Counted from the first letter of the stretch, positions 3,301-20,000 are shown. The stretch is 20,000 nt of DNA from an uncultured virus (IMG/VR IMGVR_UViG_3300042884_001034) (IMGVR_UViG_3300042884_001034:53168-73167), one strand, 5' to 3'. Numbers and translations are program-made. The notes: generated from the letters alone by a model not told the origin.

Positions 3301-6300
3301 TGTATACACAAGGTGGCCTATGTCTCTTCCTATATTTTCAAAAACATCAATAATTCTTAAGTGCACTCTCATCTTCTCTGCAAAATCTGAAAGTTCTTTA
3401 TTATTTGAATCGTTAGAAGAAGCTGGTCTATTTTTATAAATAGTGTTATAATCATTTAATAGCTGGTCACCCTCTTCTCTCATAATACCTACAACATCAA
3501 TTAAAGAAGCAATATTATTTTGTCCCTGTAAAAGACGAACAGCTTTTCTAATAGTGTTTAAACGCTCTATTTTAAATAAACGCTCATCATCATCTGTTAC
3601 TTCTTCCTTGCCTATTTGTTTAAGCATGGAATTTAGTTTTTTAATAATATTATCAAGATCTTCATATCCTGTAGATTCTGTTTGTTCAGAAACAGGCACA
3701 AGTCTAAGATCTTGTATTTTAGTTTTATCTATAGAACCTATAGCTATTCCTTTTAATTCAAGGCCAGAACTCTTATTGCCTTTTTCTTTATACCCAAAAT
3801 CCATAGCTATTGGAATAGCTCTATTCATTCCAAATTCTTTTATTCCATAAAAGTCTTTAAGAATATTTTTATATGTACCAAGCTGAATATCAAAGGCTCC
3901 TTGTTTAAACCATGCAACATCTTCACCGTTTATTTGCATAAACTTCCAATCAAGAATATGTCCTTTCCCCGAAGGATCTACAGCTAAGAAGTCTATTGTA
4001 CCAGCTCTTTTATCTTTAGGATTGTAAACTATAACTTCCGAGAAAACTAATGCATCTTTATCTAATGTTTGTAAAAGACTTACATAATAGTTTTCCAACA
4101 TATTATACATTTCTTCAGAAGGAAGATTGAATTTTACAGGTCTTGGATCAGGAGTGGTCTTTTTTGTACCATCTTTATTATAATATCTATTATGTATTTC
4201 TTCAAAATCAGCATGCCCCTCCACCCCATATTTTCTTTTCATCTCGTTAAAAGCCTTTTCTTCTGGAGTGAATTTTTTATCTTTAAATCTTTTCTTATAC
4301 CACTCTTTAACAAGATCTGTCACCCTTTTGGTTATTTTTTGTTTTGTACCATCAGGAAGAGATATTTCATACCAGTTGGTAGACTCATCTGAATCTGCTA
4401 ACACTTCATCAGACTTTTCATCACTAACCACTTTGTTAATAGAATTTCTTGTTTCCTGTATTTTTTCTTGCACTTTCTTTTGTGCATCAGATAGTTGGTA
4501 AAATATTCCTCCTTCAGAAATATCAGAAATGGTTCCTCCCACCTCACCTTCAATCACTCTAGCTCCCACTTCTTCAAATATAGATATGTTGGATTTTCTA
4601 TATACACCTCTTATAAGATCTAATATTTTATTCCAAAAGTTTCTAAATAATGATTGAGTGGCTTCCTCCATTAATTCAGGATAGGCTTCTGTAGCTCCTG
4701 CTTTATTAATAATTACTTCCACTAAAAGTTTATCTACAGCTTCTTTCTTTATTTTACGTATATCTGGTTTTCCATTAGGAAGTTTATATACATCTTTATA
4801 TTGATCATAGACTTGTTTATATATCTTAAATCTATCTATTTTAGAAATCATTTCTGTAACAAGTCTTGGGTCCATTTGTTCTAAAATAGCTGTTGCTACG
4901 TGTACCATTTCTTCTGTGAGAGCAACATCTTCTTTCCCCTCTGCTACAGCAATTATCCCTCTAACAAGATCTGCCAGTCCATTTATTCCTTTTGTTGTTA
5001 CGTCTTTATTACCTTTTAAATAATCAGAAAGCTGCTGAATACTAATACCCATTTTTTTAGCAGCTTCCTTCACCTTAGAAAGTGTTTCAGCAGAAGCCTT
5101 AGAAGCAGGCATTCCTTCTTTTTGTAAAAGAATTTGTTTCTGTTCTCTTTCAGGAACAATTTCTACTTCATTCCATGTATTACCATATTCATCTGTAATT
5201 TGTTTTACATTATCCTTTCCGTATTGTTTATTTAAAATATTCTTTACAGTGTTCTCATAGAAGTTGTATATAGGTTTTAAAGCACCAAAACCATTTTTTT
5301 CAACATCTTCAAGCTCTTTTTTAAGTTGATTTATTTCATTTTTAGTTTCTTCTGAAAACTTACTTTTTAAAGATTCAATTTCTTCTTTAGTAGCTGTTTT
5401 TTCTCTACCTGTTTCATTGCTTACTTTTCTCCAAGTTAAAACCTCATTACCATTTTCATCTTCTAAATATCTTTGAATATAATAAAATCCATCAACATTT
5501 TTATTTTTTAAAATACTAGATTCTTCAAGTTCTTTAATTCTATTTTCTTTTTGTTTCTTAAACTCTTCTAATGTTGTATGTCCTTCTACTTTACTAGCTG
5601 TATTACCAGAAGGGAATAACACTTTCTCATATCCTTTTTTAGCACTATCTTGTAGAATAGATTTAATAAAGAATGTAACCCAGTTAGAGTTTTTGTTTAG
5701 AAGTTGGAGGAATTGATTATCTGAACTATTATCTCCTCTTTCATCAAATCTTTTTTCTAACGCACTTCTTCTTAAAGTAGCTGTTTTACCTTCTTGATTT
5801 GAAATTGTAATTAATTCATAAAGATTAGAATCTGTGTCAATATTTGTAACTGTAAACTTTTCACCATTAGATATAAATGTATCTCCTACTTTTTTAATAT
5901 CAAGCTTTTTAGAAAGAACTTTACTATCTCTACCCTTCTGAAAAAGATCAGATTGTACTTCTAGTATTCTACGAGTTGTAGTAGGTGTACCTCCAACACC
6001 AGGAATGCCATTTTTTTCTAATTCTTTAGCTGCTTGAGCACCTTCAGTATCTCTAACTTCTTCTATTTCTTGAGGTAGTGCTTTTCTATTTTGAATACCA
6101 ACTATAGAATCATCACTTCTAAACCAACCAATACCTTGATCTGTAGCAAACTGAGCATGTCCTTTAATAGAAGGAGTAATAGCTGGTGTAGCTATTTCAT
6201 TTTCTGTATAATTGGTTCCTCCTGGAACTGTTAGGTTAGAATATACAGAACTATTATTAGCAGCTCTTTGAGTATTAAAAGCTCTGTTAGCCTCTTCTAA

Positions 6301-6822
6301 TGTTTTAAAAATTGCTATATCAGGATCCCCATCTTCTGTAATATATTCAATAAAATAATCCCCAACTTCAGCTCCTAAAGCCATAGCAGAATTTTCATCG
6401 GTTATTTGTTTAGGTTCAGAACTTTTACCATAAATATCAGAACCTATTTTATTTTTAGCAACATTAATCTCAATAGCATAACTATAATTAGCTAACATGT
6501 TGGTAATCAACTCATTACGATCTGTTGTATTAAATGATTTGAGAAGTTCTATTTGGTCTTTAGGAATACTAAGATCAGATTGTACCTTGTTCCAAAAAGC
6601 ATCTCCTTTCACTCTATTCTTTTCTAAGGAAGAAAAAAGTTTAATAGCCTTCTCAGATTGTAAAGCATCTACAGATTTTAATCCAGCTTTAACAATAGAA
6701 CTTTTACTCTCACTTTCAGGAACATTTCCTTCATAAAGATCCCATAAAGCATAAGCAACATTCTCTCCTCTAGCTGCTACTAACAATTTCCAAGAATCAA
6801 GATTTATATTAGGACATGCCAT
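370..6822 (-). CDS. 2150-aa multidomain (polyvalent) virion cargo protein: EVQSD domain, zincin-like domain, PD-(D/E)xK nuclease, helical C-terminus with a hydrophobic segment
   Basis: Uninterrupted 6.4-kb ORF (ATG..TAA) starting 3 nt after the RNAP gene stop. Motifs: MACPN, LEVQSDLFQ, TEEMVH...KEAVDKL, GTIDFL...ILDWK...QLGTY, LAILGALLGVMISLGFM. A large gene next to the virion RNAP gene is typical of crAss-like phages. Confidence 0.85.
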   Translation of the reverse strand: MACPNINLDSWKLLVAARGENVAYALWDLYEGNVPESESKSSIVKAGLKSVDALQSEKAIKLFSSLEKNRVKGDAFWNKVQSDLSIPKDQIELLKSFNTTDRNELITNMLANYSYAIEINVAKNKIGSDIYGKSSEPKQITDENSAMALGAEVGDYFIEYITEDGDPDIAIFKTLEEANRAFNTQRAANNSSVYSNLTVPGGTNYTENEIATPAITPSIKGHAQFATDQGIGWFRSDDSIVGIQNRKALPQEIEEVRDTEGAQAAKELEKNGIPGVGGTPTTTRRILEVQSDLFQKGRDSKVLSKKLDIKKVGDTFISNGEKFTVTNIDTDSNLYELITISNQEGKTATLRRSALEKRFDERGDNSSDNQFLQLLNKNSNWVTFFIKSILQDSAKKGYEKVLFPSGNTASKVEGHTTLEEFKKQKENRIKELEESSILKNKNVDGFYYIQRYLEDENGNEVLTWRKVSNETGREKTATKEEIESLKSKFSEETKNEINQLKKELEDVEKNGFGALKPIYNFYENTVKNILNKQYGKDNVKQITDEYGNTWNEVEIVPEREQKQILLQKEGMPASKASAETLSKVKEAAKKMGISIQQLSDYLKGNKDVTTKGINGLADLVRGIIAVAEGKEDVALTEEMVHVATAILEQMDPRLVTEMISKIDRFKIYKQVYDQYKDVYKLPNGKPDIRKIKKEAVDKLLVEVIINKAGATEAYPELMEEATQSLFRNFWNKILDLIRGVYRKSNISIFEEVGARVIEGEVGGTISDISEGGIFYQLSDAQKKVQEKIQETRNSINKVVSDEKSDEVLADSDESTNWYEISLPDGTKQKITKRVTDLVKEWYKKRFKDKKFTPEEKAFNEMKRKYGVEGHADFEEIHNRYYNKDGTKKTTPDPRPVKFNLPSEEMYNMLENYYVSLLQTLDKDALVFSEVIVYNPKDKRAGTIDFLAVDPSGKGHILDWKFMQINGEDVAWFKQGAFDIQLGTYKNILKDFYGIKEFGMNRAIPIAMDFGYKEKGNKSSGLELKGIAIGSIDKTKIQDLRLVPVSEQTESTGYEDLDNIIKKLNSMLKQIGKEEVTDDDERLFKIERLNTIRKAVRLLQGQNNIASLIDVVGIMREEGDQLLNDYNTIYKNRPASSNDSNNKELSDFAEKMRVHLRIIDVFENIGRDIGHLVYTKDMLENAKTEEEREDVARRKDIHDQLMAQSNAIYRSKEQLTKAAQDFADKHVGQRNLVFGLLSPEAVIKGLSSNFRGISELPSKALQLLYKVVRGAQGEASKASLERVQKLMDIRKKLAEQGGDLRTIVQQIYQKDDKGGIVNKLIHRYSRKFHEEVDAKAKEGGDKQWLLDNIDVEEYKKEANKRLEDQIKKIERQIYTSDKNENEAIRVKNIKEAQEMWDIDNKNFNGWNNYIIKRHPLPKWYSEEYKNILKNPILLELYNFIGSINEEAKEAGYITNKVMKTFLPFVRKGAAEELAWDHSISPLKNFSESLKMQTDDVGFGSFNELTGELENSVPKYYTYDFTRKDGVNDYSDVSEDLFKNMILYIQQMEKYKYLSAVEGQLQLVKTVEQFKGHLATDRSANVVKQGGKIIEIPGNEENTKMYDDFLRVLLYGQKYVLSDTDTPLNVGKVLNFVKNGVNTITGREVFKIDEEPSATSLVKTMDAANRAFQLKALGFEFISGAVNMFGGNIQVATQAGDYFKARDFLKNQAKLAVQRFDNEEDREIFVQLVNTFMPLKDDPSTDIYKYEAGMTALTRKNLGDMLMVFMRKPEQLIEKSIFVTLLENMMVDNGRIVNINDFVKNKYKNRYKSSSEYKQSKEAIKAEVEELKKTKSIAVTKKLVNGKLEIPGLDLSNQRELQRLTELTRRISRNATGGMSDGDINRMSMSVWTNSMMLFKSWIPKLADTRFSEFRKVSDDFSVTVDEDGVKGEKYDIGRIRLLAYVLGTSIRDKSANITNLIQMNDKGIALIDKMYEDFAEKYEKRTGETLNMTKEDFADMIRTNLRNEIKELAILGALLGVMISLGFMAPDDEEDKATKNFFRYSQRVVDKFVGELSFFYNPVNFESLLSGSMFPAIGLITDYTRFTSHFVREVTGFDITDPTLSAEEVRKKAMPIKYAAKALPVAKSALTYGAILNNEFAKEFDITIQKESSMK
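748..804 (-). other. Predicted transmembrane/hydrophobic helix near the C-terminus of the 2150-aa protein
   Basis: LAILGALLGVMISLGFMAP is 19 uncharged residues, flanked by EIKE and DDEEDK. Confidence 0.6.
3760..4380 (-). other. PD-(D/E)xK (RecB/Cas4-like restriction-endonuclease fold) nuclease domain
   Basis: Motifs occur in the expected order: RVTDLV, YGVEGHADFE, FSEVIVY, AGTIDFLAV (D at 3991..3993), ILDWKF (DWK 3943..3951), QLGTY (3871..3885, the RecB-family QxxxY motif). Domain boundaries are approximate. Confidence 0.8.
4600..5080 (-). other. Degenerate zincin-like (metallopeptidase-fold) domain
   Basis: Beta-strand-like NGLADLVRGIIAVAEG is followed by helix TEEMVHVA (EEMVH 4900..4914; HExxH with the first His replaced by Glu), a downstream KEAVDKLL helix and FWNKILDLIR. 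The layout parallels the zincin-like domain in the RNAP protein. Confidence 0.55.
5158..6260 (-). other. EVQSD-motif domain of unknown function (possibly GNAT-like fold) with insertions
   Basis: Motif blocks PGGTNYTE, GHAQF, IGWFR, RILEVQSDLFQ, WVTFFIKSILQDSAKKGYEKVLFP, FYENTV, TWNEVEI. I recognise this pattern from large phage virion/polyvalent proteins. The fold assignment is inference. Confidence 0.5.
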
Positions 6823-6825
6823 ATT

Positions 6826-9800
6826 TTAACATTTATTATTTTTAATTATTGTTCCTGCTTCAGCCAATGTGTAGCCCATGTCTACAAGCATTTTTGTGTT
6901 TAATTGCTCAGATGAATATGTTTTTCCATCTTTAAGAGACACTGTTTTTTCAGTAGTTGTAGACTCCAAAGATACTAAATTTTCATCTAAATATGATAAA
7001 ATTTCATCATCTTCTTTTTCTTGTTCCACTTTTAAAAATCCATTATCTATCTTAGATTTTTTAGCTACATCATACATTTCTACAGCCCTGAAAGAGTCTC
7101 CCCAAGCATTAACCATTTTATAAATATATTCAGTAATAACAATATTTTGTCCATCTTTATTCATTGTATATTCATTAGTAAATGGTATATCTCCATTATA
7201 TATTTTTTTGAAAAGTCCTTTTTTGATATAAGAATAATCACCTTTCTTTCTCATAGCTTCTTTCTCATATTTATTTCCCACTTCCCATGTAAACACAACA
7301 TAGTCAGAGTCTGCTTCCCTGGATTTTGTATTAAACTTAATCAATTGAGGAATATCTCCAGTTTCCATAGGTTTATTAAACCCAGATAAATTTCTAAAAA
7401 AGTCAAAATTTTTATATCTCCAATTACCAAATTGATCTTGTTTTTTAACTAGTCTTCTACTAGGAACAACATCTCCATCATTCCAATTATTTCTTTGAAA
7501 AACTCCTAATTTATAAAAATCATTAAGATTTGGAATTGTCTCAAGCTTTGATAGGGTCTTATTGTAGATTTCTTTAAAATCTTCATAAGGAATAAGAGAT
7601 GTAAATGATATTGGAGACCTATTTAATCCAGATTGCAAAACAGCGAGCCTAACTAAGTTTCCATATAAAGGACTTTTTATACCTTTAAAATATTGTTTTA
7701 GTTCTTCAAAAGCATAGATAATTTGATTTTGATCATACACTTTATTATCTCTACCAACAATCTTTAAATTGTTTGTTCCGTTTTCTAGTTTTTGAGAAAA
7801 TACAGGAACAAGACTATTTATTAAAATATTATCTTTTAAAGGATGTTTGCTAGATTTTTTAACATCTACAATAAAATCTGACATTTGTTTAGCCACATTA
7901 TTATCTTCTAAAAGAATTCTTTGTACCATTGTATTAAGATCTCTATCATTCTGCACTGCCCAATCAAAAAGATCATTCACTGCCTTTTGAGAAATTTTAA
8001 CAAAATCCCTATCCGATTCATTTATATACGGAAGTAACACTTTTTCCATAACTCCTCTAACATTAGTTTGGTCAGAAACAAGTATTGTAGAAAGAGCATT
8101 TCTTAATTTAAGCAATAAATCACTTAAATTTCCTATGAAAGAATTTTCTAATATATCATCTACGGAAGATACAATAGATGTTTTTGCTTTTTTAAGTTGT
8201 TCCATTTTCTTAAATACTAAAAATGGATCATTAAAAGAAGCTGTATCAAAATTAGAACCCTGTGTAACTAAGTATAGCTGATTAGCCATCTTAGCATACT
8301 TAACAAACTCAGATAGGATAAATCTTTGATCTGCTTTCTGCTCTGGAGATAAATTTTCTCCCTCCCCAATCATATCCCATAATTTACTCTTGCTAGGTAT
8401 TTTAGTGGGCTTTGTAATAGATGAATCATATTTAGAAATAACATCTTCAAATATGTCCCCAATAAATAACCAAGAATACCCAGACCTTTCTATGGATTTT
8501 AAATAATCTCTCACAATGGGTTGGTTCATGAAATAAGCAATAGTGTCGATTGGTACACCTATCTTAGCTAAAAACAACCATGTACTAGCTACATTAGGAG
8601 TGGCTCCTAATTCCATAATCCAGGGTCCTTTAGATATATCCACATATCCATCAATAAACTGTCCATTTATATCTGATATATCTTGGCCTTCTGCATTTTC
8701 TATCATAGAAAGTGTAGGAACTTTTTCTCCATCCACTTCTATACTGTTATACTGTTCAAAGTTAATTTCTGCATCACCCAACCACTCTCTGTCAGCAGCA
8801 TCCTGTATTGCTAATTTATTTTTATCTATGTAAATAGGAGATCTCTGATTTAATGAGTGATTAGTTTGACTTACAGCAGCAATACCAATAGCATATTTAC
8901 CACTAACAAATGCTTGTCTAAGTCTTGACATAAACACCCTGTTTAACATGTTTCCTGTAGAATCATAGTTAAAAGCCCCCACTCCTAATTTATCAGAGAT
9001 TTTTTTAGATAAATCTTTAAGTTGATCTGCGGAGTTTGGAGAAGTAAGTCTTTTGAAATTTTTAGGATGAGAAACAAGTTTTTCACAAGACTCTATATAT
9101 TCATTTTCTAAAGACTCTTTGTACATTTTGTCTTTAAACTCTTCTAATAAAATCTGCTGTACATCCCAATTAGTTAATTCAGAAAGTTTTTTACCAAGTT
9201 TTTCTAATCTTTTTATAAAAATTTCCTCAATATCAGCAACTAATAATTTACCGTCTTCAGTTTCTTTTTCAAACATTTGTTTAAAAATAGGAATCCATTT
9301 ATTAGCTGTTTTGTCACTAGATATTCCCAAAGAAATATCACTGAATAAAGACTGTAAATCAGCTGTAGATATTTTTTTAGCTTCTGCTTTATCTATTTTG
9401 CTTTGTAAAATATCAAAGAAAATATCTTCATATTTATTTTTGTTATTAGGATCTATACCAAAAAATGGTACAATCTCTATATTTCCTTTAGCATTTTTAA
9501 ATACGTTTTTAAAGTATATAGAAAGTTTATCTATATCAAAGTCAGATCCCACTTTCTGAACCAATGCTGAAGGAATTACAACAGAGTCTCCAAATTCCTT
9601 AGGAAGAAATCTTTTAATTTTAAAAACATCAATAGAGTTTTGCTTTTGTGTAGGAATACGGTATGCAAGTCCAGATAGAATTTTTTGTCCTTCTGGAGTT
9701 TCATTTAAATATTTTAAAAGCTCTTCGTCAGACAAATCACTCTTAAACCATCTACCCACCATTATTTCACACACACGTTTACCATCCTCATCCTTATAAA

Positions 9801-12800
9801 ACTCAAGAGTGTCAGATGTATATCCTAGTTTTCCGTTAATTTCTCTTAATTCTGTTTTTGTAGATTCTAATAAAGCAGCAGGAATTTGTACTTTTAATCC
9901 ACCAGAAATTTTAGGAGAAATTACTTCCTTATCTGCTATGGAATATAAAATATTTCTTATTTGTTGGTAGGCAGGTGTGGCCTCTAATATTACAGAACCT
10001 TCTGCATAATTTCTTACAGCCTCACTTATATTATCATTAACCTCTCTTTTTAATAACTCTTGTCTTAAAAACTCTGCAACTTTTTCAATATTCTCTGGTT
10101 CAATAACATATCCATCAGCAGTTTCTGTTATATGCAATTTATTCAATAAAGACTTATATCCATTTACAGCAATAGCTTCTAAAAGATTTTGGTTGTTTTT
10201 TATCTCTTTGTAGAGAGAAGATTCTTTTATTCTACCTTCTTCGTCTAATGCATACCAAGCTTTATACCTTTCTGGAAATGTTTTTGTTTCTTCAAAGTCT
10301 ACAGGAACTCCTGCTTCCATATAATCCATAGTGATGAGTTTTGTCACCTGGGATCCTCTAGTTACCAAAGGAGTGTCTTTAGAAGGCACTTCAGATTGAA
10401 CACTCATTATGTCAAAAGGAACATTGAACACTCCTTCAAACTCATTAGTGTTAAAACTACCATCCTCGTTATATACAGAATTAGTTTTTTCAGCTCCCAC
10501 TTTTCTAGCACTCTTAAACACTACATAATCAATGTTTTCTTCCTGCATTTTATCATAAAGCTTTAATGCGTTGGAAGAAGCATTTATCTCATACATCACT
10601 CTATATGATAATGGATATAATGCAAACTTGTCTAGCATTACATCATTGTAATTTTTACCATTATCTTTATTTCCAGCTACAATAGGTTTAACTGGTGTAT
10701 AAGTACTCTTTGCAGCAGGATTCTTATTAAGAAGCTTTTGTAACTCTTCTTTAGAGGCTCCTGATTTAGCAGCTTCTTCAAATTTAATATCAAACTTATA
10801 TTGAAGCTCTTCGTTTTCATTCCATTCTCCAGAACGAATTCTAAAATTTCTATACGCTTTAAAAGAAATTATACCACTACCATCCGTTTCTTCATATTCT
10901 TTATATCCAGGAAGATCAATCACTCCTACAATATCAGCTAGTGTTGTGGTCTTAAAGTAATTCTTATTAAAATCTGTATACCCTAAATCTCCTTTTTTAA
11001 AGCCTTTATTCCAAACATTATTTAATAGCGAATTTATATTGTCCGATCCTAATAAACGTTGTCTAGGAGAGAGAAAGTTTTTAATACGTTTTAATTCATC
11101 ACTGTATTGATAAGGATCTGAATACAATAACTTATGAAACTCTATATTGTTAATCATAAAGTTGATATTCAAAGCTGTCAACTCTCTGTTTAAATCATCA
11201 ATATTTTCAAACACAGACTCTGAAAGTGCTATGTTTTCCACTTCCCAGCCTAAATCTGTTTTATTTATAATACCATAAGAAAGTAAATTATTTCTAAATT
11301 TATTTACATCTTCCCCAATAAAACTCTTTAGAGCAGCATTAATTTTTGACTCATATTTTTTATAAACTTCTTCTGGAGTTCCAGTTTCTTTCACAATATC
11401 ATTATGCAACTTCTCTCCAAGAATAGGTTTAAAGAATCTAAGATCTGTACTTTTTCTAGTTTTTGTCTCTTTTGTGTTTCTATTTACATCTCTAGATAAT
11501 AGTAATTCTGAAATAAAATATCCTTTAAATATTTTATTAACATCTTCCATTCCTGTAGCTCTTAATCTTTTTACAGAAACATGATTACCCATATATGCCA
11601 TCCATTCCATAGAAGCATCTCCAGGGACAAGATTCATATAATATCCATTAAGATTTAAATTAATTTCTTGTATTAATCTTTCTCTATAGGTTAACTTAGA
11701 AGATTCTTTTTTCTTACCACTCTGTTCATTAATTGTACCATCTACATATCCTATAGATAAATAGTTTTCAATATCTTCTCTTTTTTCCCCTGTCTCTAAA
11801 TTAAACATTTTGTTTAATATAACAGAATTCTTAACAAAAGAATCTGTTAATAAATACTGATATTGAGCGGGAACATCATTTAAATTGTTAACCTGAGAAA
11901 GTACATCGTAAAGATCACTACCAGGATTGGTTCCTATAAAAGACTGCACTCTTTCTCCATTAAGATTGAAATATGTACTGTCAAATTCTGGAGTGGTAAT
12001 TATTGCTTTTATTGTAGCTAGTTTTAATAGCTGGCCCTCAATATCTAACACCTTACCAGATATAGTGGCTATTTCTTTAGCTTGCTCAATACTTGTTCTA
12101 ATACCATCTACAGCTGTGTTAAATACTTTTAATTTATCACTGTTAAGAGATTTTAATTCTTCCTCTGTAAAAGATATTCCTAATTTTTCTAAAAACGCTA
12201 TTCTTGCTGATGCACTTAAAAGAGTTTTAGGAACAGATTTAGGCTCTCCTTTAAATCTTCTAGTCTTATCATCATATACAAAATAAGAACTTTTCTTAGT
12301 TTTTATTGCATCAACTATTTGAGAAATAAAATCTGATCTTAATTGTCTTGCTGCAGAAGAAAGATTTGAATCTCCTATTACAACATCATCATTAGAAAGA
12401 ATAAATACTGCTTTTACATCAGCATTCATTTTCTTAAATGTTTTCCAGAATGAAGCAAGTAATTGGGCCTCATGTGGTTCTGTTAAATTAGAATAATCAA
12501 TTCCTTTAACAGTTATAGCAGATTTAGTAAGTCTTTCATATAATGTTTTATAATTATTATCTTTTAAACCTAATTCTTTAAGTCCTTGTAACATTTCTTC
12601 TATAGTCTTGGCACTATGAACTTGGTTCATTACTTTCATAAAAACCTCACTAGTAGGAATTAACTTAGCACCATTCACTGTAGAACGGTCCATATTACCA
12701 TCTCTATCCACTCTAGCAACAGTGGATAATAACATTTTTATAGCTGCATTAGCCTTTTTAAAATTGTCAATTTTTCTAGCATCTTGATAATCTGATTTTC

Positions 12801-15800
12801 CAGAGTTATTTTCATCTGTTAATGTTGCATTATCATTCTCATCAAATTCTATTGAATATCCTCTTAAATATTCCTCGTGTTTAAATTTAAACTCATCCCA
12901 ATTATCTTCTACAGCCTTCCATAAAGCAAGAGATTTTTCTATGTGAGGAGCCCCTTGTTTTTCTGTAAATGTACCTTTCTCAATTAAAGCTTTTGTAGAA
13001 CTTACAGTTTTAAGAATGTCTTTTTGAACTTGGTCTTTTAATTTTATATATAATTCCGTTTTGTTAATATTTGGAATAGTAAAAAAGCTTTTATTATCTC
13101 TGAAAATATTCTTTAAAGTGAGGTAGGTCATGTTTTGTATAACATCATGTCTCTCCTGACCATTCATTCCAATTATACTAAACTCTGCCCCAGCATTTGC
13201 AATAGCTTCTTCTATATCAATCACTCCTTCTTTAGCGAAAGAAAGTGCTGAGTGATATGGAGAATATTGTTTGTAATATCCATTTCCTATTTTAGAGAAT
13301 AGTTTTTCTGTATTACTTTCAGCTTTATTTCCTGTAAAAAATTCCTTAATAAAACTAACAAGGTCTGCAAATAATTTTAATATAAATGGTCTTCCAGAAG
13401 TTGGTTTACCTGGAATTTTTTTATACATTACATAATCTCTAAACTCTTCTGCTAGTTGTTCTTTAGCTTCTTGATTAGTGGCCTCAGAATATTTAACTTC
13501 TTTTCCTGTAGGTCTGTCTATAAAAGAACCTTTTCTAGCTTTAAACTCAGCTAATACATTAGCTTGTTCTTCAGCATCAGAAAACATTTTCCATACAGCT
13601 TCAAAAACCTCATGGTAAACAGTGCCCACTTCCGCATTCTCATATATGTATATAGCACCGTCTTGAAACATACCCCAAGCTTGTCTACCATTAGTAGCTT
13701 GTATTACATTCTTCACTCTATATACAGGAACATTTGGAAAGTTTTCTTTTAACCACTTTTCCACCTTCTGCCAATTCTCTCCCTCAAATTTTTCTATTTC
13801 TTTAGCAATCTTTTCTCTAAACACAGGACCATCTTCATCAGAAGATTCCATCATTTGTCTTCTTATTTTGTCAAGATCTGACTCTGTCATTCCTTCAGAT
13901 GCAACTTCTGTTTTAGCTTCCTCACTTATAATTTTTGCTGCTACAGGAGCTGTTTGTTCAGTCACTTTCTTTTTATATTCTTCTATCTGTGGAGCTAAAG
14001 TTTTTACAATTGATCCTGCAAAAGCATCTTTAATTTGTTCTTCTGGTGCGTTAAGATCAGCTATTGCTTTTTCAATACCATCTCCAGACAGTTCTCCTTG
14101 AAACACTCCTTTTATAGCATCATATGAAAAATTAATATTATATTTACCTAAAAGGGTAATGTTATTTTTTGCCTCTCCATCAAATGTATAGCCATCAACA
14201 ACTATTTTAGCTGCTGGTGTAGGAGCTACAGGAGCTGCTGGGGCTGTTGGGGTTAGCACCTTCGGTGTTGTTACCACTGTTTTTGGAATAACAAACTTAT
14301 CTGCATTATCAGTGATTGTAAAATAAACCCCTTCTCTATTAACATCTTCCTCATTTTTTAAAGGACGAGCTATTGTTGTAAGAGGAATATTCTCTGCATT
14401 TCTTTTATTACCATCCGCATCTTTATTAGATAGTAGATAAGATTGGTAGTTAGGCCATGTTTTTATTTCTAAAGATCCATCTTTTTTAACACCAATAATT
14501 TCAGAATAAGGTTCATTCCAAGATTTATTTATAATAGTGGCATTAACATTATTATACATGTCCTGTATAAGAGACATTAAATTATCTTGGTTTTCTTGAA
14601 TGGATAATGGACCAAAAGGAATGTTTCCTCCTTTTCCAGATAAGAATAATTTTAATATTCCATCTGCATCTTTTTCAAACCATATACTATTATATCCTGG
14701 ATTCTTTCTGTTACCATCAACCACTTTAGGAACTCCCCAATATACAACAGATTTGAGCCAATCTAATATAACTAAAGAATCTGCTGATTTAGCATTACCA
14801 TCTTTTTCTACATTTCTAGAAAGTCTTAAAATCATATTATATATTAAAGAAGCTTCTTTCTCATTAAACTTTCTATTGTTTAGTTTAACAAGACCATTTG
14901 CTGTCTTTAATAATGGTCTACCTTTAGCATTAGTAAATGTAACGCTACCATTTTCTTCCGCACCTTCTGTAGTACGAAGAACAATTACATTATTGTTTTC
15001 TAATCCTTTTGGAACAAGTCCAGCCTCTTCTACAGAGTTTTTAGCTCGGTAGTTAGTCTGTTCAACTCCTTTATCATCTGTATATTTTTCATTTTGTAAA
15101 ATACCAAATGAAGCGTCTATTCTATATTGTACAAGGTCAACAGTTGATAATATACCATCTCTCCATGTTTTATACTGCTCTATTAATGCCTTTTTAACAT
15201 TATCTGGAGTGGTATTTCTAAACATAGAAGATGGCTTACCACTCTTACTATATTCAGCACTCCATTCTAATCCCTCATCAGGCATCACCTGATATATTGC
15301 ATTATCTAATTTATCTACTCCTTCAGGAATAACTTCTCCATTAACATCAACAAGTTCTCCATCTGTATTAACCATAACAAGAGCTATCACTCCTGCTTTT
15401 TGCTCTGGTGTGCCTTCTCCAAAAAGTCTATCTATTAATCCAGGTATAAGACTAACTTGGTTGTTAATTGTAACTAATACACCACGGATATTTGCTTTAT
15501 TAGGAAGAGTGGGGAAATTGTTACCAAACTTATTAGCTCTTATATGATGAGGCTTGTCTGACTTTGAAGGCACCTTTGTACTAGTGACAATAGAAATGTC
15601 ATCCTTTTTAGCATCAGGCTCATAAGTTTCATCATACTGAAGAGTTTGTTGATCAGCTACCATTGTTCCTAAAATAGCTTGTTTAAACTCTTCATTTTTA
15701 GCCAGTCTAGCTTCCTGTTCTTTTTGTTGTTTATGTTTTTTAGCTACTTCCTCAAATGTATTTAAAATTAATTCTTTTGCTTTAATTTCTTTTTCTACCT

Positions 15801-18800
15801 CTTTAAGCTGATTTTGTAACCCCTCCATTTCTTTCCTAAGTTCTTCTAAAGATCTTTCATTAGGAATGACGTCAAGTTCATCTATATCAGCAATATCTCT
15901 TTCAAATTCAGAAAGATCTGATAATAGATTTGGGTTTGCCTGTAAGTAAGATTGATAATCTGGATAGACACCTTTAGCAGAAAGATCTTTATTTAAAAAC
16001 TCTACAAGTCCTAATGGTGTATATGGAAGATTTGGATATTTTGCTTCAAATTTCTTAATAAGATTTAATGCAAAATCAACAGCAGTTTTTAATGCACCAT
16101 CCACTTGATCCATTAATTTAGACAAAGCATTAATTTGTTTTCCTACACTTTCTTGTAATAGGTTTAAATTTAAAGCTTGCTCATTAAGATCTTCTAGTAG
16201 CTCTCTACTGTTTTCAGGGAACTCATCAATATTTTGAGCCATATCAGCTACATAAGACTGATTAAACTCTATCTCATCTCTTTCAGCTTCTAATGCTTCT
16301 ATTTCTAAACGAAGGTCTTCCTTCATTCTAGAAAGTCTATTAGCAGCTTTAATTGCTTTATTTGTAGAAGATTTAAAATTGTTTTTCTTAGTGATAGCAC
16401 CACTACTAATTTTTTCTTCTAATACTTTCATCTCCTCAACAATCCTATCCACTTGCTCTTTTTTCTGAGCAATAAGTGTATTAGTTTTGTCTAGCTTAGC
16501 AGAAAGATTGTCAAATAAATTAGTAAGTATTTCAAGTCTACTAGCTCTTCTTGCTTCTATTCTTGCGTCTCTTTCAGCAGCAAACTCTTCTTCTGATTTT
16601 TGTTGAACAGCTGTAAGAGTACCAAAAGCTTTTATCATTCCATGTTGGTAGCCTTCTTTAGCTTTAAAGTCTTGTCCTACAATTTCTTTTGTTCTTATTT
16701 TTCCTTTTGCATCTTTGTATACAAATAATAAAATTCCTTCTTTAGGAGAATATTGAAGTCTTCCTTTTGCAGGCTGTCCATTCACTTTAATACCGTAATG
16801 TTCATATACGGTATTAATATTATCCATGTAAAACTTAGCTTTTTTATTTTTTTCTGTATCACTCACCTTCCCCAACTTATAACTAGCCAGTTCTTCCTTA
16901 GATATATTTTTAATAATTCCTGTAGACCCTTTTATTCTTATTGTGCCATCCTCATTTTCACCAAGAATTGTTAACTTAGGAAAGTTATGAACTTCTTTAC
17001 CATCTTTACTATAAGAGACAACACTACCTAAATAATACTCTGTACCCACTTCAATATCTTCTTCCCCATCTTTTGTCTTAATTTTAACAATCTGCTTTTC
17101 TTTAATTTTTGTATCAGGAGCAAATTCTTCTTCTTCCTCTTCTGTATATTTCTCTGGATTGTTTTTAATATCATTATATTCATCTAAAAACTTTGCTCTA
17201 CGTGCTGACAATTCAGCTACATCTTCTAGAGCTGTTTTAAGATCTGCCACTTTTTCTGGTAATAAATTTTTACCAAGAGCATCAATTTCTGCCATAGCAG
17301 CATTGAAAGAATCACTACTTCCAGCTACAACATCATTAATAACTGTATCAACATCTATATTTATAGCCTCCAAAGAACCAGATAGTTGTGGTATTCTTTT
17401 ATCATAATCTGCCACTTTAGTAGCAGCATAAATCATTTTATTTATTGTCTCTGGAGAGTATACAGGTTTACCATCTTTGGTGATAAGATTACCATATCTT
17501 AAATTAATAGATTGGTATAAAGATTTTATGCTATCAGCAGTTTGTTCAAGATTTTCTATTCTCTGTAAATATTGCTCTCTAGTGTCTCCCTCTAATGCTT
17601 TACCCTCCGCCTTTAATTGTGCAAATCCTTCTTCAGTCATTGCTAATTTTCTATAATCTTCTATGTCAGAACGAACAAGATCCATTCTGCCATATTTAAT
17701 TCTAGGTGTTAGGTAGTTGATAATATAATCTTGTTCAAGATCTTTACTCTCTAAAACATCTCCTTGTCTTAAAGCTTTTTCTCTATCCTCTTGAATAGCA
17801 GTGCCTCTATTAACAGCAGATATTGTTTCCTTTGTAAAATCAGAGAATTTCCATTCATTGGCTTTTTTAATAAATTCTGCTGTATCTTTTGCTTTTTCTC
17901 TACTCTCTTGTATTTTCCCTTTAGCCATCATTAAGGCCCCAGATAAACCACCAATAAGGACATTTTCCATTCCCTCGTTAGTAGTGAGGGTTTGTTTAAC
18001 TCCTTCTTTAAGACTATCAATAAAATCAGCTGAAGCTCCTCTGTATTTTTTATTATAATAATCTTGTGTGCCTGATTGAATAGCAAATTGTGCGCCTTCT
18101 TCAAAAGCTTCAGATATAGAAAATGTGTAAGGCCTTATATTATTTAATGTAGATAAAACTCTGTTTTTAAAGAATGAAGGGGCCTTTACTAAATTACCAG
18201 CAGCATCTTTAGTAACATCTGCCACTTCTTTTGTAAGACCATTAACAATCCCTTTTTCAGCCTTATACGAAGCTCCTAGTATTTTAGGAAACTGAATATA
18301 GTTAGTAGCTGTTAATAGAGCAGTGTTAAGAAGGAAAGAAGATGTACCTACATTTTCTGCCTCATTATTAATTTTTTCAAGATCTTTACCTGTTGGAGCA
18401 AGTCCAAAGTTTTGTGCTTTATATTCCTCTATTTTCTTTTTTCTAAATTCATTAGAATTATTATAAGCTTCAAATCCTGCCTCTCCTGTTGTAGCAAGTC
18501 CTGCAACAACAGCTCTACCACCAGCATTAAGACTATTATATGTAGATAGGTATTTATCAGAAATACTTTTTATCTTACCAAACATGCTAGCTCCTTTATC
18601 AGCAGCAAGAAGAGCCTCTTCTGTAGCCACTAAAGCTTCTGCAGATTTACCTGCTGCAAATAGTTTTGATGTAAGAGGAAGAGCTTTTAAAACAGAAGCA
18701 TACACACCTCCAGATAAAGCAGCTCCTGCTGAAAATCCCATATTTTTAATAATGCCATCCCAGAAGAAATTAGCTGTAAACCATTTCTTAGGAGAGTACC

Positions 18801-19299
18801 AATCTGCGTCTTTTTCTTCTTTTGTATAATAGTTAGCCCATTTATCTTCAAGATCTTGATTAAATTCATCTAGACTTCTATTAAAATCATTATCATAAAA
18901 TGATGAAAACTTTCCTGTTTGGGCCCAATTAGCCACACCATTAACCAATCCAGCTGTAGACTGTAAAAATGTGGTTCCTGTTAAAGCAAGTCCTTTGCCT
19001 ACACCATTAATCATTTTGTTTGTCCAAGCTTGTCCTTGGGCATATAACTCTTCATTATCAACATTCCTAAATGTTTTAGGGTATCTCTTGGAAGTTTCTT
19101 GGGTGGAATAAGCATATTTGCTTGTATCTTCCATACCGAAAGCTTCCATTCTAGCTCTCTGAAGATCTTCTAAAGGATTGTTTCTATTCTCTCCACCAGA
19201 CCCACTAGGTCCCACTCCTTGAGGAATACCCTCATCCAATCTAGCTAGACCTTCATTTTTAATATTATTTGCCCAATCTAAGAAGTTTTGATCACTCAT
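6826..19299 (-). CDS. 4157-aa giant virion protein containing a crAss-like single-chain two-barrel DNA-dependent RNA polymerase (phi14:2 gp66-like)
   Basis: Uninterrupted 12.5-kb ORF. It contains YRIPTQ (9646..9663) followed by GDSVVIP...GSDFDIDKL (DFDID 9529..9543, about aa 3253-3257), plus ETDGSG, KPIVAG, DKFALYPL, SARKVG, GKYAIGIAA and YVDISK. DFDID is the catalytic DxDxD variant of crAss-like virion RNAPs. Confidence 0.93.
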   Translation of the reverse strand: MSDQNFLDWANNIKNEGLARLDEGIPQGVGPSGSGGENRNNPLEDLQRARMEAFGMEDTSKYAYSTQETSKRYPKTFRNVDNEELYAQGQAWTNKMINGVGKGLALTGTTFLQSTAGLVNGVANWAQTGKFSSFYDNDFNRSLDEFNQDLEDKWANYYTKEEKDADWYSPKKWFTANFFWDGIIKNMGFSAGAALSGGVYASVLKALPLTSKLFAAGKSAEALVATEEALLAADKGASMFGKIKSISDKYLSTYNSLNAGGRAVVAGLATTGEAGFEAYNNSNEFRKKKIEEYKAQNFGLAPTGKDLEKINNEAENVGTSSFLLNTALLTATNYIQFPKILGASYKAEKGIVNGLTKEVADVTKDAAGNLVKAPSFFKNRVLSTLNNIRPYTFSISEAFEEGAQFAIQSGTQDYYNKKYRGASADFIDSLKEGVKQTLTTNEGMENVLIGGLSGALMMAKGKIQESREKAKDTAEFIKKANEWKFSDFTKETISAVNRGTAIQEDREKALRQGDVLESKDLEQDYIINYLTPRIKYGRMDLVRSDIEDYRKLAMTEEGFAQLKAEGKALEGDTREQYLQRIENLEQTADSIKSLYQSINLRYGNLITKDGKPVYSPETINKMIYAATKVADYDKRIPQLSGSLEAINIDVDTVINDVVAGSSDSFNAAMAEIDALGKNLLPEKVADLKTALEDVAELSARRAKFLDEYNDIKNNPEKYTEEEEEEFAPDTKIKEKQIVKIKTKDGEEDIEVGTEYYLGSVVSYSKDGKEVHNFPKLTILGENEDGTIRIKGSTGIIKNISKEELASYKLGKVSDTEKNKKAKFYMDNINTVYEHYGIKVNGQPAKGRLQYSPKEGILLFVYKDAKGKIRTKEIVGQDFKAKEGYQHGMIKAFGTLTAVQQKSEEEFAAERDARIEARRASRLEILTNLFDNLSAKLDKTNTLIAQKKEQVDRIVEEMKVLEEKISSGAITKKNNFKSSTNKAIKAANRLSRMKEDLRLEIEALEAERDEIEFNQSYVADMAQNIDEFPENSRELLEDLNEQALNLNLLQESVGKQINALSKLMDQVDGALKTAVDFALNLIKKFEAKYPNLPYTPLGLVEFLNKDLSAKGVYPDYQSYLQANPNLLSDLSEFERDIADIDELDVIPNERSLEELRKEMEGLQNQLKEVEKEIKAKELILNTFEEVAKKHKQQKEQEARLAKNEEFKQAILGTMVADQQTLQYDETYEPDAKKDDISIVTSTKVPSKSDKPHHIRANKFGNNFPTLPNKANIRGVLVTINNQVSLIPGLIDRLFGEGTPEQKAGVIALVMVNTDGELVDVNGEVIPEGVDKLDNAIYQVMPDEGLEWSAEYSKSGKPSSMFRNTTPDNVKKALIEQYKTWRDGILSTVDLVQYRIDASFGILQNEKYTDDKGVEQTNYRAKNSVEEAGLVPKGLENNNVIVLRTTEGAEENGSVTFTNAKGRPLLKTANGLVKLNNRKFNEKEASLIYNMILRLSRNVEKDGNAKSADSLVILDWLKSVVYWGVPKVVDGNRKNPGYNSIWFEKDADGILKLFLSGKGGNIPFGPLSIQENQDNLMSLIQDMYNNVNATIINKSWNEPYSEIIGVKKDGSLEIKTWPNYQSYLLSNKDADGNKRNAENIPLTTIARPLKNEEDVNREGVYFTITDNADKFVIPKTVVTTPKVLTPTAPAAPVAPTPAAKIVVDGYTFDGEAKNNITLLGKYNINFSYDAIKGVFQGELSGDGIEKAIADLNAPEEQIKDAFAGSIVKTLAPQIEEYKKKVTEQTAPVAAKIISEEAKTEVASEGMTESDLDKIRRQMMESSDEDGPVFREKIAKEIEKFEGENWQKVEKWLKENFPNVPVYRVKNVIQATNGRQAWGMFQDGAIYIYENAEVGTVYHEVFEAVWKMFSDAEEQANVLAEFKARKGSFIDRPTGKEVKYSEATNQEAKEQLAEEFRDYVMYKKIPGKPTSGRPFILKLFADLVSFIKEFFTGNKAESNTEKLFSKIGNGYYKQYSPYHSALSFAKEGVIDIEEAIANAGAEFSIIGMNGQERHDVIQNMTYLTLKNIFRDNKSFFTIPNINKTELYIKLKDQVQKDILKTVSSTKALIEKGTFTEKQGAPHIEKSLALWKAVEDNWDEFKFKHEEYLRGYSIEFDENDNATLTDENNSGKSDYQDARKIDNFKKANAAIKMLLSTVARVDRDGNMDRSTVNGAKLIPTSEVFMKVMNQVHSAKTIEEMLQGLKELGLKDNNYKTLYERLTKSAITVKGIDYSNLTEPHEAQLLASFWKTFKKMNADVKAVFILSNDDVVIGDSNLSSAARQLRSDFISQIVDAIKTKKSSYFVYDDKTRRFKGEPKSVPKTLLSASARIAFLEKLGISFTEEELKSLNSDKLKVFNTAVDGIRTSIEQAKEIATISGKVLDIEGQLLKLATIKAIITTPEFDSTYFNLNGERVQSFIGTNPGSDLYDVLSQVNNLNDVPAQYQYLLTDSFVKNSVILNKMFNLETGEKREDIENYLSIGYVDGTINEQSGKKKESSKLTYRERLIQEINLNLNGYYMNLVPGDASMEWMAYMGNHVSVKRLRATGMEDVNKIFKGYFISELLLSRDVNRNTKETKTRKSTDLRFFKPILGEKLHNDIVKETGTPEEVYKKYESKINAALKSFIGEDVNKFRNNLLSYGIINKTDLGWEVENIALSESVFENIDDLNRELTALNINFMINNIEFHKLLYSDPYQYSDELKRIKNFLSPRQRLLGSDNINSLLNNVWNKGFKKGDLGYTDFNKNYFKTTTLADIVGVIDLPGYKEYEETDGSGIISFKAYRNFRIRSGEWNENEELQYKFDIKFEEAAKSGASKEELQKLLNKNPAAKSTYTPVKPIVAGNKDNGKNYNDVMLDKFALYPLSYRVMYEINASSNALKLYDKMQEENIDYVVFKSARKVGAEKTNSVYNEDGSFNTNEFEGVFNVPFDIMSVQSEVPSKDTPLVTRGSQVTKLITMDYMEAGVPVDFEETKTFPERYKAWYALDEEGRIKESSLYKEIKNNQNLLEAIAVNGYKSLLNKLHITETADGYVIEPENIEKVAEFLRQELLKREVNDNISEAVRNYAEGSVILEATPAYQQIRNILYSIADKEVISPKISGGLKVQIPAALLESTKTELREINGKLGYTSDTLEFYKDEDGKRVCEIMVGRWFKSDLSDEELLKYLNETPEGQKILSGLAYRIPTQKQNSIDVFKIKRFLPKEFGDSVVIPSALVQKVGSDFDIDKLSIYFKNVFKNAKGNIEIVPFFGIDPNNKNKYEDIFFDILQSKIDKAEAKKISTADLQSLFSDISLGISSDKTANKWIPIFKQMFEKETEDGKLLVADIEEIFIKRLEKLGKKLSELTNWDVQQILLEEFKDKMYKESLENEYIESCEKLVSHPKNFKRLTSPNSADQLKDLSKKISDKLGVGAFNYDSTGNMLNRVFMSRLRQAFVSGKYAIGIAAVSQTNHSLNQRSPIYIDKNKLAIQDAADREWLGDAEINFEQYNSIEVDGEKVPTLSMIENAEGQDISDINGQFIDGYVDISKGPWIMELGATPNVASTWLFLAKIGVPIDTIAYFMNQPIVRDYLKSIERSGYSWLFIGDIFEDVISKYDSSITKPTKIPSKSKLWDMIGEGENLSPEQKADQRFILSEFVKYAKMANQLYLVTQGSNFDTASFNDPFLVFKKMEQLKKAKTSIVSSVDDILENSFIGNLSDLLLKLRNALSTILVSDQTNVRGVMEKVLLPYINESDRDFVKISQKAVNDLFDWAVQNDRDLNTMVQRILLEDNNVAKQMSDFIVDVKKSSKHPLKDNILINSLVPVFSQKLENGTNNLKIVGRDNKVYDQNQIIYAFEELKQYFKGIKSPLYGNLVRLAVLQSGLNRSPISFTSLIPYEDFKEIYNKTLSKLETIPNLNDFYKLGVFQRNNWNDGDVVPSRRLVKKQDQFGNWRYKNFDFFRNLSGFNKPMETGDIPQLIKFNTKSREADSDYVVFTWEVGNKYEKEAMRKKGDYSYIKKGLFKKIYNGDIPFTNEYTMNKDGQNIVITEYIYKMVNAWGDSFRAVEMYDVAKKSKIDNGFLKVEQEKEDDEILSYLDENLVSLESTTTEKTVSLKDGKTYSSEQLNTKMLVDMGYTLAEAGTIIKNNKC
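9529..9543 (-). other. RNAP catalytic Mg-binding motif DFDID
   Basis: GAC TTT GAT ATA GAT on the minus strand, about 40 codons after the RxP motif, as expected in the catalytic double-psi beta-barrel. Confidence 0.92.
13270..13780 (-). other. Zincin-like domain with non-canonical HEVFE motif at the junction between the N-terminal half and the RNAP
   Basis: AWGMFQDGAIYIYENAEVGTVYHEVFEAVW (HEVFE 13600..13614, about aa 1896-1900), then EQLAEEFRDY (starting 13461) and LFADLVSFIKEFF. This is the usual layout of phage polyvalent-protein zincins, but the second His is Glu. Confidence 0.7.
14209..14280 (-). repeat. Pro/Ala/Thr-rich low-complexity linker
   Basis: TVVTTPKVLTPTAPAAPVAPTPAA; the DNA is locally GC-rich with repeated GCTCCTG units on the coding strand. 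Confidence 0.75.
15680..16600 (-). other. Long predicted coiled-coil region of the giant protein
   Basis: E/K/L/Q-rich heptad-like stretches such as LSAKLDKTNTLIAQKKEQVDRIVEEMKVLEEKI, MKEDLRLEIEALEAERDEI and LEELRKEMEGLQNQLKEVEKEIKAKE. Confidence 0.7.
17920..19015 (-). other. Gly/Ala-rich hydrophobic helical region (candidate membrane-inserting domain)
   Basis: GVGKGLALTGTTFLQSTAGLVNGVANWA, MGFSAGAALSGGVYASVLKAL, AVVAGLATTG, FLLNTALLTATNYIQF and VLIGGLSGALMMA, plus an EAFEEGAQ motif. Confidence 0.55.
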
Positions 19300-20000
19300 T
19301 TTTTAAAGTTTAATCCACTAAGTGTTTTAATTGTTTGAAGTCTACCTGGAGTTAAGCTATTTATAAAAGACTGTGCTGCATCAGCAGATGGATATGCAAC
19401 AGGGTATATATCTCCTGGATTTTTATCAGCAATACCTCTTACATTACCTTCTCCATCTTTTATATAAAAGTAAATATTATGTTGACCAAGATCATTAACT
19501 TTTATATCTGCTCCTAAAATATCTGTTTCTTGTCTTTGATGAAAGAATGATGGTGGATAATAAGCACCTGTATATGCAACAGGGTTGTTTGGATCTCCTG
19601 TTATAGAATTTGTTGTTCTGTTGTTTTCACTCCATGCAATTTTTCTATTAACATCTGAAACAGGGGCAGGAAGATTAATAACTGCTCCTTTTATATAATT
19701 TGCTGATCTTTTATCAATAGGTAATTGTTGTACTAAAGTGTTTCCATCATAAAGGTCTAATGTAAAAGTTTCTCCATAACTTCCAGGAGTTCCTCTATCA
19801 ACACCAATAGAAACATTATACTTGTCTTTATCTTTTCCTGCTAAAAAGTTAGTAAATTTGTCAACATCTATTGTTCCTTTATAATTATCAATCACTTCAT
19901 TAAGTCGTTGATTGACAGATTTAATTTGGGGCTCCTTAGCATCCTCAGGATATAACGAAACAACTAGAGGCTCATTGCCTAACATTTTTTGTTTTAACAC
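19296..20000 (-). CDS. 3' end of an unidentified protein, probably another virion/cargo protein; start lies beyond the window
   Basis: Frame is open from the window edge to TGA at 19298..19296 (at least 234 aa). The stop overlaps the next ATG (ATGA). No recognisable motif; the 'M' in the ORF track is probably an edge artefact. Confidence 0.75.
   Translation of the reverse strand: MLKQKMLGNEPLVVSLYPEDAKEPQIKSVNQRLNEVIDNYKGTIDVDKFTNFLAGKDKDKYNVSIGVDRGTPGSYGETFTLDLYDGNTLVQQLPIDKRSANYIKGAVINLPAPVSDVNRKIAWSENNRTTNSITGDPNNPVAYTGAYYPPSFFHQRQETDILGADIKVNDLGQHNIYFYIKDGEGNVRGIADKNPGDIYPVAYPSADAAQSFINSLTPGRLQTIKTLSGLNFKK

Follow-up and report, generated by a model that had tools for sequence, protein, structure and literature searches.

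The virion RNA polymerase (RNAP) of crAss-like phages belongs to a three-part cargo set, whose members are called here A (gp47 of crAss001, gp67 of phi14:2), B (the RNAP itself, gp50 or gp66) and C (gp49 or gp65). In the Steigviridae crAss001 and phi14:2 the parts are encoded by three separate genes; those of crAss001 have been reported as virion cargo by mass spectrometry, and those of phi14:2 are virion cargo by record annotation. The ejection of megadaltons of cargo by crassviruses, the relations among the three RNAP-associated proteins and the activation of the RNAP have been stated as open questions (PMC13434306; bioRxiv 2020.03.07.982082). We analyzed a 20,000-nucleotide stretch of DNA from an uncultured virus (IMG/VR IMGVR_UViG_3300042884_001034, positions 53168 to 73167; hereafter the window), in which a protein of 4157 amino acids (aa), referred to as the giant, is encoded at positions 6826..19299. 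Positions are counted from the first nucleotide of the window, and all features described lie on its minus strand. Parts homologous to those of crAss001 and phi14:2 occur here in the same order and with facing terminal cysteines; unlike in those phages, A and B are fused into one chain. We consider it probable that A, B and C form a head-to-tail thread joined by disulfides between their termini, in which the giant would replace the A-B link with a peptide bond and the RNAP would be tethered at the inner membrane.

Translation of positions 6826 to 19299 gave an open reading frame (ORF) without internal stops, so that the 4157-aa chain described in a sequence-only reading of the window is real, and homology shows the product to be a gp47/gp67-type cargo protein joined to a gp50/gp66-type virion RNAP. 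Part A extends over aa ~45-2000, zincin domain included. Its all-helical N-terminal module (aa ~46-745; 17065..19164), delimited by blastp, profile, model and hydropathy, matched crAss001 gp47 over aa 46-745 (blastp E 1e-34; profile iE 2e-44) and phi14:2 gp67 over aa 64-738 (blastp E 1e-7; profile iE 2e-7), although sequence identity of the giant to the crAss001 and phi14:2 parts is only 21-25%. The module is homologous to the N-termini of gp47, gp67, phi4:1 gp038 and the cargo proteins of Lbo-JY46 and crAssE-Sib, and it stood at the head of a large protein in all five named phages searched. Slices covering aa 730-1690 had no match in gp47 or gp67. The idea that a separate cargo protein has been fused to the polymerase was thus borne out, the N-terminal half being a stand-alone gene in crAss001 (gp47) and phi14:2 (gp67), whereas the suggestion that any novelty would lie in that half was not, since it belongs to a known cargo family.

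The RNAP half (aa ~2030-4157, ~2100 aa; 6829..13212) matched gp66 over aa 2658-3760 (blastp E 2e-24) and gp50 in the region of aa 2575-3760 (E 4e-20). When a 42-row profile of the RNAP core was searched against the PDB, the sole match was 6VR4 (gp66; E 4.2e-27), with an alignment spanning the catalytic motif; from this homology, the half is expected to contain two double-psi beta-barrels. The catalytic DFDID was found at aa 3253-3257 (9529..9543), where the sequence-only reading had placed it; it is the sole DxDxD in the entire chain, and DFDxD is kept in all 121 close homologues (the giant included in this and later counts of that set). The polymerase is therefore of the crAss type, as predicted, and of the gp66 kind rather than the T7-type single-subunit kind, so that its likeness to the N4 virion RNAP (vRNAP) is one of layout only; gp66, at 2180 aa, is indeed roughly half the giant's length. 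Pfam and PHROGs searches of the 4157-aa chain assigned no family, and actin rows in a single-sequence PDB search of the giant (E about 0.04) were discarded as chance.

Fusion of A to B is typical of this clade. A homologue search restricted to proteins of 2286-7275 aa found 712, and the best 120 measured 3760-5083 aa; a search with the N-terminal module and no length limit returned 117 proteins longer than 3400 aa among the 144 new identifiers in the best 150 of 3087. The zincin frame ran stop-free into the RNAP or to the end of the locus in 80 of 80 loci, and sequencing error was rejected as the source of the fusion, although the query spanned the junction and so biased this check towards fused forms. 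In one relative (L113) the chain is split before the zincin. The A+B arrangement is also present in the classified phages cr4_1, cr118_1, cr272_1, cr10_1, cr108_1 and FpV4, whose N-terminal halves were missed by the N-module profile and were assigned by position, length and zincin. In Intestiviridae (p-crAssphage, jaberico and cr110_1) B is fused to C instead. Being typical of the clade and present in classified Crassvirales, the fusion is of a known kind, in keeping with the earlier remark that fused giant RNAPs occur in some crAss-like groups.

What the fusion offers is a natural control for the distribution of cysteines. The giant has three Cys in all (3177, 3405 and 4157), and its first 3176 aa are Cys-free. 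The C-terminal Cys4157 (6829..6831) faces the start of part C, a gp49/gp65-type cargo protein of 2150 aa recognized by family profile (370..6822), whose gene begins 3 nucleotides past the giant's stop and whose sole Cys is Cys3 (6814..6816). Among 236 distinct fused proteins, 235 of the 419 Cys fell within the last 12 residues (0.5 expected), none fell in the first 12 residues and two in the post-zincin junction. We then considered the distinct complete giants from loci L003-L082, excluding duplicates and 3'-truncated ones: all 60 end in a C-terminal Cys, and the next gene has an N-terminal Cys in 57 of 60. The three next genes that lack one are inserted hydrophobic genes of ~150 aa, and in each case the gene beyond starts with Cys, so that the inserted gene appears to be skipped by the chain; these insertions encode 151-161 aa without terminal Cys (L014, 16846-17304; L018, 12929-13414; L024, 16739-17194). 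As controls, the gene upstream had a terminal Cys in 0 of 56 and 0 of 54 cases, and the ORFs of the phage's own genome in 4 of 36 and 2 of 36, counting the giant and part C themselves.

The pattern follows the parts when they are divided differently. In L113 the only Cys of part A is at its C-terminus, and the zincin-RNAP protein starts with the sole Cys in the 1994 aa available. In L006 part C is divided, and both new ends bear Cys. N-module matches shorter than 3400 aa end in Cys in 14 of 27 cases; most of the other 13 terminate within the alignment, as would be expected of fragments. In all 18 named phages Cys is present at the C-terminus of the A-containing protein and absent from its N-terminus, and the last protein of the set lacks a C-terminal Cys in all 15 named phages examined; among these phages free RNAPs have Cys at both ends, and B+C fusions at the start only. 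In Lbo-JY46 (L091), phi4:1_18 (L094) and crAssE-Sib (L093), A ends in Cys and a later large gene starts with one. Across crAss-like phages, then, the sequences of these nearly Cys-free proteins show a single Cys at every terminus that faces another part, with none where an end is free or a junction fused. Terminal-Cys links for crAss cargo were not mentioned in the literature searched, which included term searches of the Drobysheva preprint and of the main text and one of the two supplements of PMC10172136.

Two further analyses bear on whether the facing ends interact. Over 67 loci, co-variation between the 25-aa ends that face each other exceeded what RNAP-core similarity accounts for (partial r 0.41; control segment 0.08), and a complex prediction of the two ends scored 0.39 against 0.02 for the best control, with at least 90% of contacts shared between runs and a partner predicted local distance difference test (pLDDT) score of at least 72. 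The prediction lends weak support, as passing scores of 0.60 or less were seen for 18 of 157 solved complexes and also for both of the mismatches that passed (2 of 215). The facing ends of L003-L082 are of several unrelated types, with no correlation to the similarity of the RNAP cores (rho about 0.03), as if the junction between giant and part C were exchanged as a cassette.

Several observations weigh against a thread joined in this way. Part C residues 60-85 co-vary as well (r 0.26), and the co-variation can be explained by co-inheritance, the two ends being adjacent in the DNA. At the breaks in L099, L121 and L033 facing Cys are absent or were not demonstrated; these breaks are at unusual places and are probably frameshift errors or introns. 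The IAS RNAP ORF has no Cys at its N-terminus (some bases of this record are ambiguous, and an upstream ORF that overlaps it starts with Cys), and the rule fits cr110_1 only with a later start. Near-terminal Cys also occur in the gp45-position proteins of p-crAssphage, jaberico, FpV4 and Lbo-JY46, and gut phages such as cr272_1 carry many internal Cys.

The terminal Cys could instead mark non-covalent or metal-bridged docking, or serve as a packaging signal, and the fusion would still replace one contact. The Cys rule and the co-variation reveal pairing rather than chemistry, the rule holds also in phages of strict anaerobes, and the ejected proteins of N4-like phages are described as avoiding Cys altogether (PMC11445570). 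However, a metal site with several ligands is a poorer fit than a disulfide to a single invariant Cys per end amid highly variable neighbours, the structure of cyanopodophage A4 displays such a disulfide (PMC12002296), and virions of crAss001, despite its anaerobic host, are reported to contain disulfides, in the tail (PMC10172136). We therefore regard docking or a packaging signal as unlikely, though the strongest competitor to disulfide joining.

In the disulfide-joined thread that we favor, the facing ends of A, B and C would dock and form disulfides inside the virion, and A-B-C would enter the particle and leave it through the tail as a single thread of ~6300 residues; in the giant a peptide bond would stand in place of the A-B link, and Cys4157-Cys3 would be the B-C link. 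The later steps are the least certain. The channel might be opened first by separate gp45/gp46-type proteins, after which the helical N-terminal module might lead the thread and hold it at the inner membrane; the RNAP might then refold inside, tethered on the cytoplasmic side, and transcribe the early genes, and cytoplasmic reduction could release part C. The terminal-Cys pattern best explains why the fusion is tolerated, and fusion and Cys rule together fix the order A-B-C and suggest that staying joined, not cutting, is what matters. A more general proposition seems to us evenly balanced: that RNAP-associated cargo is one covalent thread of at least ~6300 residues, in which peptide bonds and disulfides are interchangeable and swappable end cassettes can take any domain, with the N-terminal module as anchor and cytoplasmic reduction freeing the parts and maybe activating a self-inhibited RNAP. 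Some fused relatives (P0025, P0026, P0032, P0056, P0066, P0099 and others) have extra Pfam domains (PF08719, PF12694, PF25176 and PF09397; one source label reads 'YbiA, DUF1768'), which suggests that accessory effectors may ride in the thread.

Cutting rather than joining would be expected if the chain were a polyprotein precursor divided by its own zincin into A and RNAP, in the head or after injection. The zincin-fold domain (aa 1842-1997; 13309..13776) was confirmed by VIA-align: the leading VIA-align rows are zincin domains (Z 6.7, which is middling; root-mean-square deviation 3.5 over 128 aligned residues), with 11 leading rows agreeing on the region, and aa 1813-1995 are colinear with the C-terminal zincin of gp47 (2069-2236; blastp E 6e-10). 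The zincin-like domain of the sequence-only reading thus stood. A motif search of the giant found no HExxH, and the position reads HEVFE (aa 1896-1900). HEAFH is intact in crAss001 gp47. Glu1951 (E747), at the third-ligand position on the following helix, was invariant in 44 aligned rows. Cleavage of fused crAss forms has been proposed by Drobysheva et al. (bioRxiv 2020.03.07.982082), P1 DdrB is described as a precedent for MPTase autoprocessing (PMC5512222), a flexible hinge of variable length adjoins the zincin, and HExxH is intact in 58 of the 121 close homologues. Yet the other 63, among them the giant, read HExxE, as do 83 of the 104 long N-module matches with a scored motif; since about half of the family tolerates losing the second His, an essential processing protease is argued against, and a domain with a structural role or weak activity is more likely than one needed for processing. 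In addition, phi14:2 gp67 has no such motif, N4 vRNAP is reported to be packaged uncut despite its zincin, and the parts of the split relative L113 appear to be re-joined through Cys, which suggests that staying joined is what is selected. A self-cleaving precursor is accordingly somewhat less probable still than docking without disulfides. The interruption in L113 itself is a 4-kb cluster of seven small genes (7169-11199) that divides the A-RNAP fusion ahead of the zincin; in L006 (17081-20723) part C is divided into a 421-aa piece bearing Cys at either terminus and a second piece starting with Cys, with a 230-aa gene between them whose appearance by eye suggests a homing endonuclease.

The sequence-only reading had one chain both building a trans-envelope conduit and pulling the genome in by transcription, with membrane helices and a coiled-coil tube in the N-terminal half forming the conduit and the fused RNAP doing the pulling. 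All the domains it named are present and in the order given. Uncharged Gly/Ala-rich helices lie at aa 103-129 and 316-338, and aa 151-600 are among the best-conserved parts (mean identity about 0.6 in close homologues), which favors such a conduit, as do the ~300 aa of heptads that follow. The helices are hydrophobic only marginally, however, their best 19-residue Kyte-Doolittle window being 1.21-1.26 where gp45 reaches 1.73; in the two best helices a value of 1.6 was exceeded by one of 51 and none of 52 aligned rows, the windows being nearly charge-free. The heptad-rich coiled-coil segment (aa ~905-1205; 15685..16587), the other half of that description, is present by a crude heptad score that marks aa ~925-1186, but it is missing in 21 of 203 fused relatives, in which the stretch that bears it measures 175-299 aa against the usual ~530, a shortening of ~250-350 aa; the coiled coil is thus dispensable in some relatives. 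Moreover, the genes at the gp45 and gp46 positions are separate and upstream. The first (919 aa, Cys-free, gp46 or cargo 2 position), of which the window holds the C-terminal 234 aa (19296..20000) and a near-identical genome the full gene, has homologues in Lbo-JY46, crAssE-Sib and phi4:1; the second (1388 aa) contains a Gly-rich run of 34 uncharged residues that resembles one in gp45. Homology of these two genes to gp45 and gp46 was weak (for the 1388-aa gene, phmmer E 6e-4 in a 13-sequence set) or absent, and the giant itself gave no blastp or profile match to gp45 or gp46. Bayfield et al. name gp45 and gp46, not gp47, as the channel formers, and whole-model searches returned no likeness to solved ejectosome tubes. 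We consider a conduit built by the giant itself very improbable.

For the helical N-terminal module our best guess, by analogy, is a candidate inner-membrane anchor like the N-terminal domain (NTD) of N4 vRNAP, which is reported to bind membranes (PMC13434306). Marginal hydrophobicity, no fold match and a model with a predicted TM-score (pTM) of 0.40 all count against a membrane role. The module occurs in three phages without an RNAP-profile match (Lbo-JY46, phi4:1 and crAssE-Sib; 0 of 3), which suggests a job independent of the RNAP and, like its strong conservation, speaks for a part in ejection, although their RNAP-less status is insecure and a divergent virion RNAP has been reported in crAssE-Sib (PMC11054128). 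Foldseek searches of both N-half models against the PDB found nothing at E <= 0.001, VIA-align of the module returned generic helical hairpins alone (Z up to 8.4 over 54 residues), and an atlas search placed it nearest to viral clusters (0.96); a lead to LPD22, from 12% of members, was weak and its recognition fell below threshold. Globin rows from its profile against the PDB (E 0.3-0.5) were taken as chance.

Between the module and the zincin lie three further regions. Two small beta domains (aa ~735-895; 16615..17097), seen in the model, have a weak SH3/Tudor-like likeness by Foldseek (E about 0.1, not significant). An alpha/beta globular region (aa ~1225-1675; 14290..15612) was modeled with block pLDDT mostly 85-97; it had no solved-structure match, but as it was searched solely within an 841-residue model this does not imply a new fold, and an atlas search of the domain gave no usable match. 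Foldseek rows from the middle region to phi14:2 and phi4:1 structural proteins were weak (E 0.02 and 0.007), and BFVD matches of the ~440-aa region were chiefly crAss-like cargo proteins. The Pro/Ala hinge (aa ~1675-1830; 13810..14277), into which a small domain is inserted, was modeled with low confidence and varies from 104 to 667 aa across 232 relatives; it is one of two natural split points among them, and it is here, ahead of the zincin, that L113 is split.

The part C family profile matched crAss001 gp49 (E 2e-13), and its match to gp65 was not significant. Part C has a clearly hydrophobic helix at aa ~2007-2025 (Kyte-Doolittle 2.14), so that a membrane may hold the thread's last part as well. 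It also contains a degenerate zincin-like EExxH at aa 637 and, in the region of aa 940-965, a stretch that by eye resembles a PD-(D/E)xK nuclease motif. Positions 3-299, at the far end of the window, hold the beginning of a 1315-aa gene, which in the near-identical genome has weak PHROG matches to tail proteins.

The window is the terminal stretch of a 73,167-base contig whose replication genes sit on the opposite strand, and the giant's start overlaps its upstream gene by 4 nucleotides. A near-identical 112-kb genome (G001) carries genes of the crAss type for TerL, portal, capsid and tail, and the cargo block comes after them. Its TerL is 41% identical to that of Lbo-JY46, the closest, 33% to phi4:1 and 23-31% to Crassvirales. 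Its capsid protein was matched in only 2 of the 50,697 phage records, which makes an unclassified environmental lineage likely, and the source is likely an environmental crAss-like phage without an assigned family. Lbo-JY46, which has the closest terminase and capsid protein, has a cyanobacterial host on record. The giant's gene position in the cargo block and its depletion of Cys fit a predicted role as virion cargo.

Among described phages, the Suoliviridae cr4_1 (4491 aa), cr118_1 (4946 aa), cr272_1 (6386 aa) and cr10_1 (4460 aa), together with cr108_1 and Flavobacterium phage FpV4 (4287 aa), have A+B fusions that, like the giant, are one chain with the RNAP in the C-terminal half and a C-terminal Cys, and the next gene starts with Cys where the sequence was examined. 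In cr4, cr118, cr10 and cr108 the zincin precedes the RNAP as in the giant, but unlike in the giant HExxH is intact where seen. The Intestiviridae B+C proteins, annotated as RNAP with a further subunit (p-crAssphage, 4070 aa; jaberico, 4098 aa; cr110_1, 4417 aa), are close to the giant in size; there the RNAP is N-terminal, the other junction is fused and the Cys rule applies in mirror image. Outside crAss-like phages, the Schitoviridae proteins N4 vRNAP gp50 and DEV gp71 are described with a similar layout, in which a helical membrane-binding NTD, a linker, the RNAP and a zincin-containing part follow each other, and as ejected with two separate channel proteins; they differ in having a T7-type polymerase, a zincin after the RNAP and no Cys, and we found no sequence or fold link to them. 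No A4-type ejection chain was matched when the N-module and RNAP profiles were searched against the PDB, and a term search of the available text of PMC12002296 gave no match to crAss phages. In that cyanopodophage, however, the C-terminal Cys1715 of gp27 is bonded to Cys5 of the next ejection protein, gp26, in a cryo-electron microscopy map, just as we propose for the giant and part C, the difference being that A4 has a single link, in an ordered pre-ejectosome (PMC12002296).

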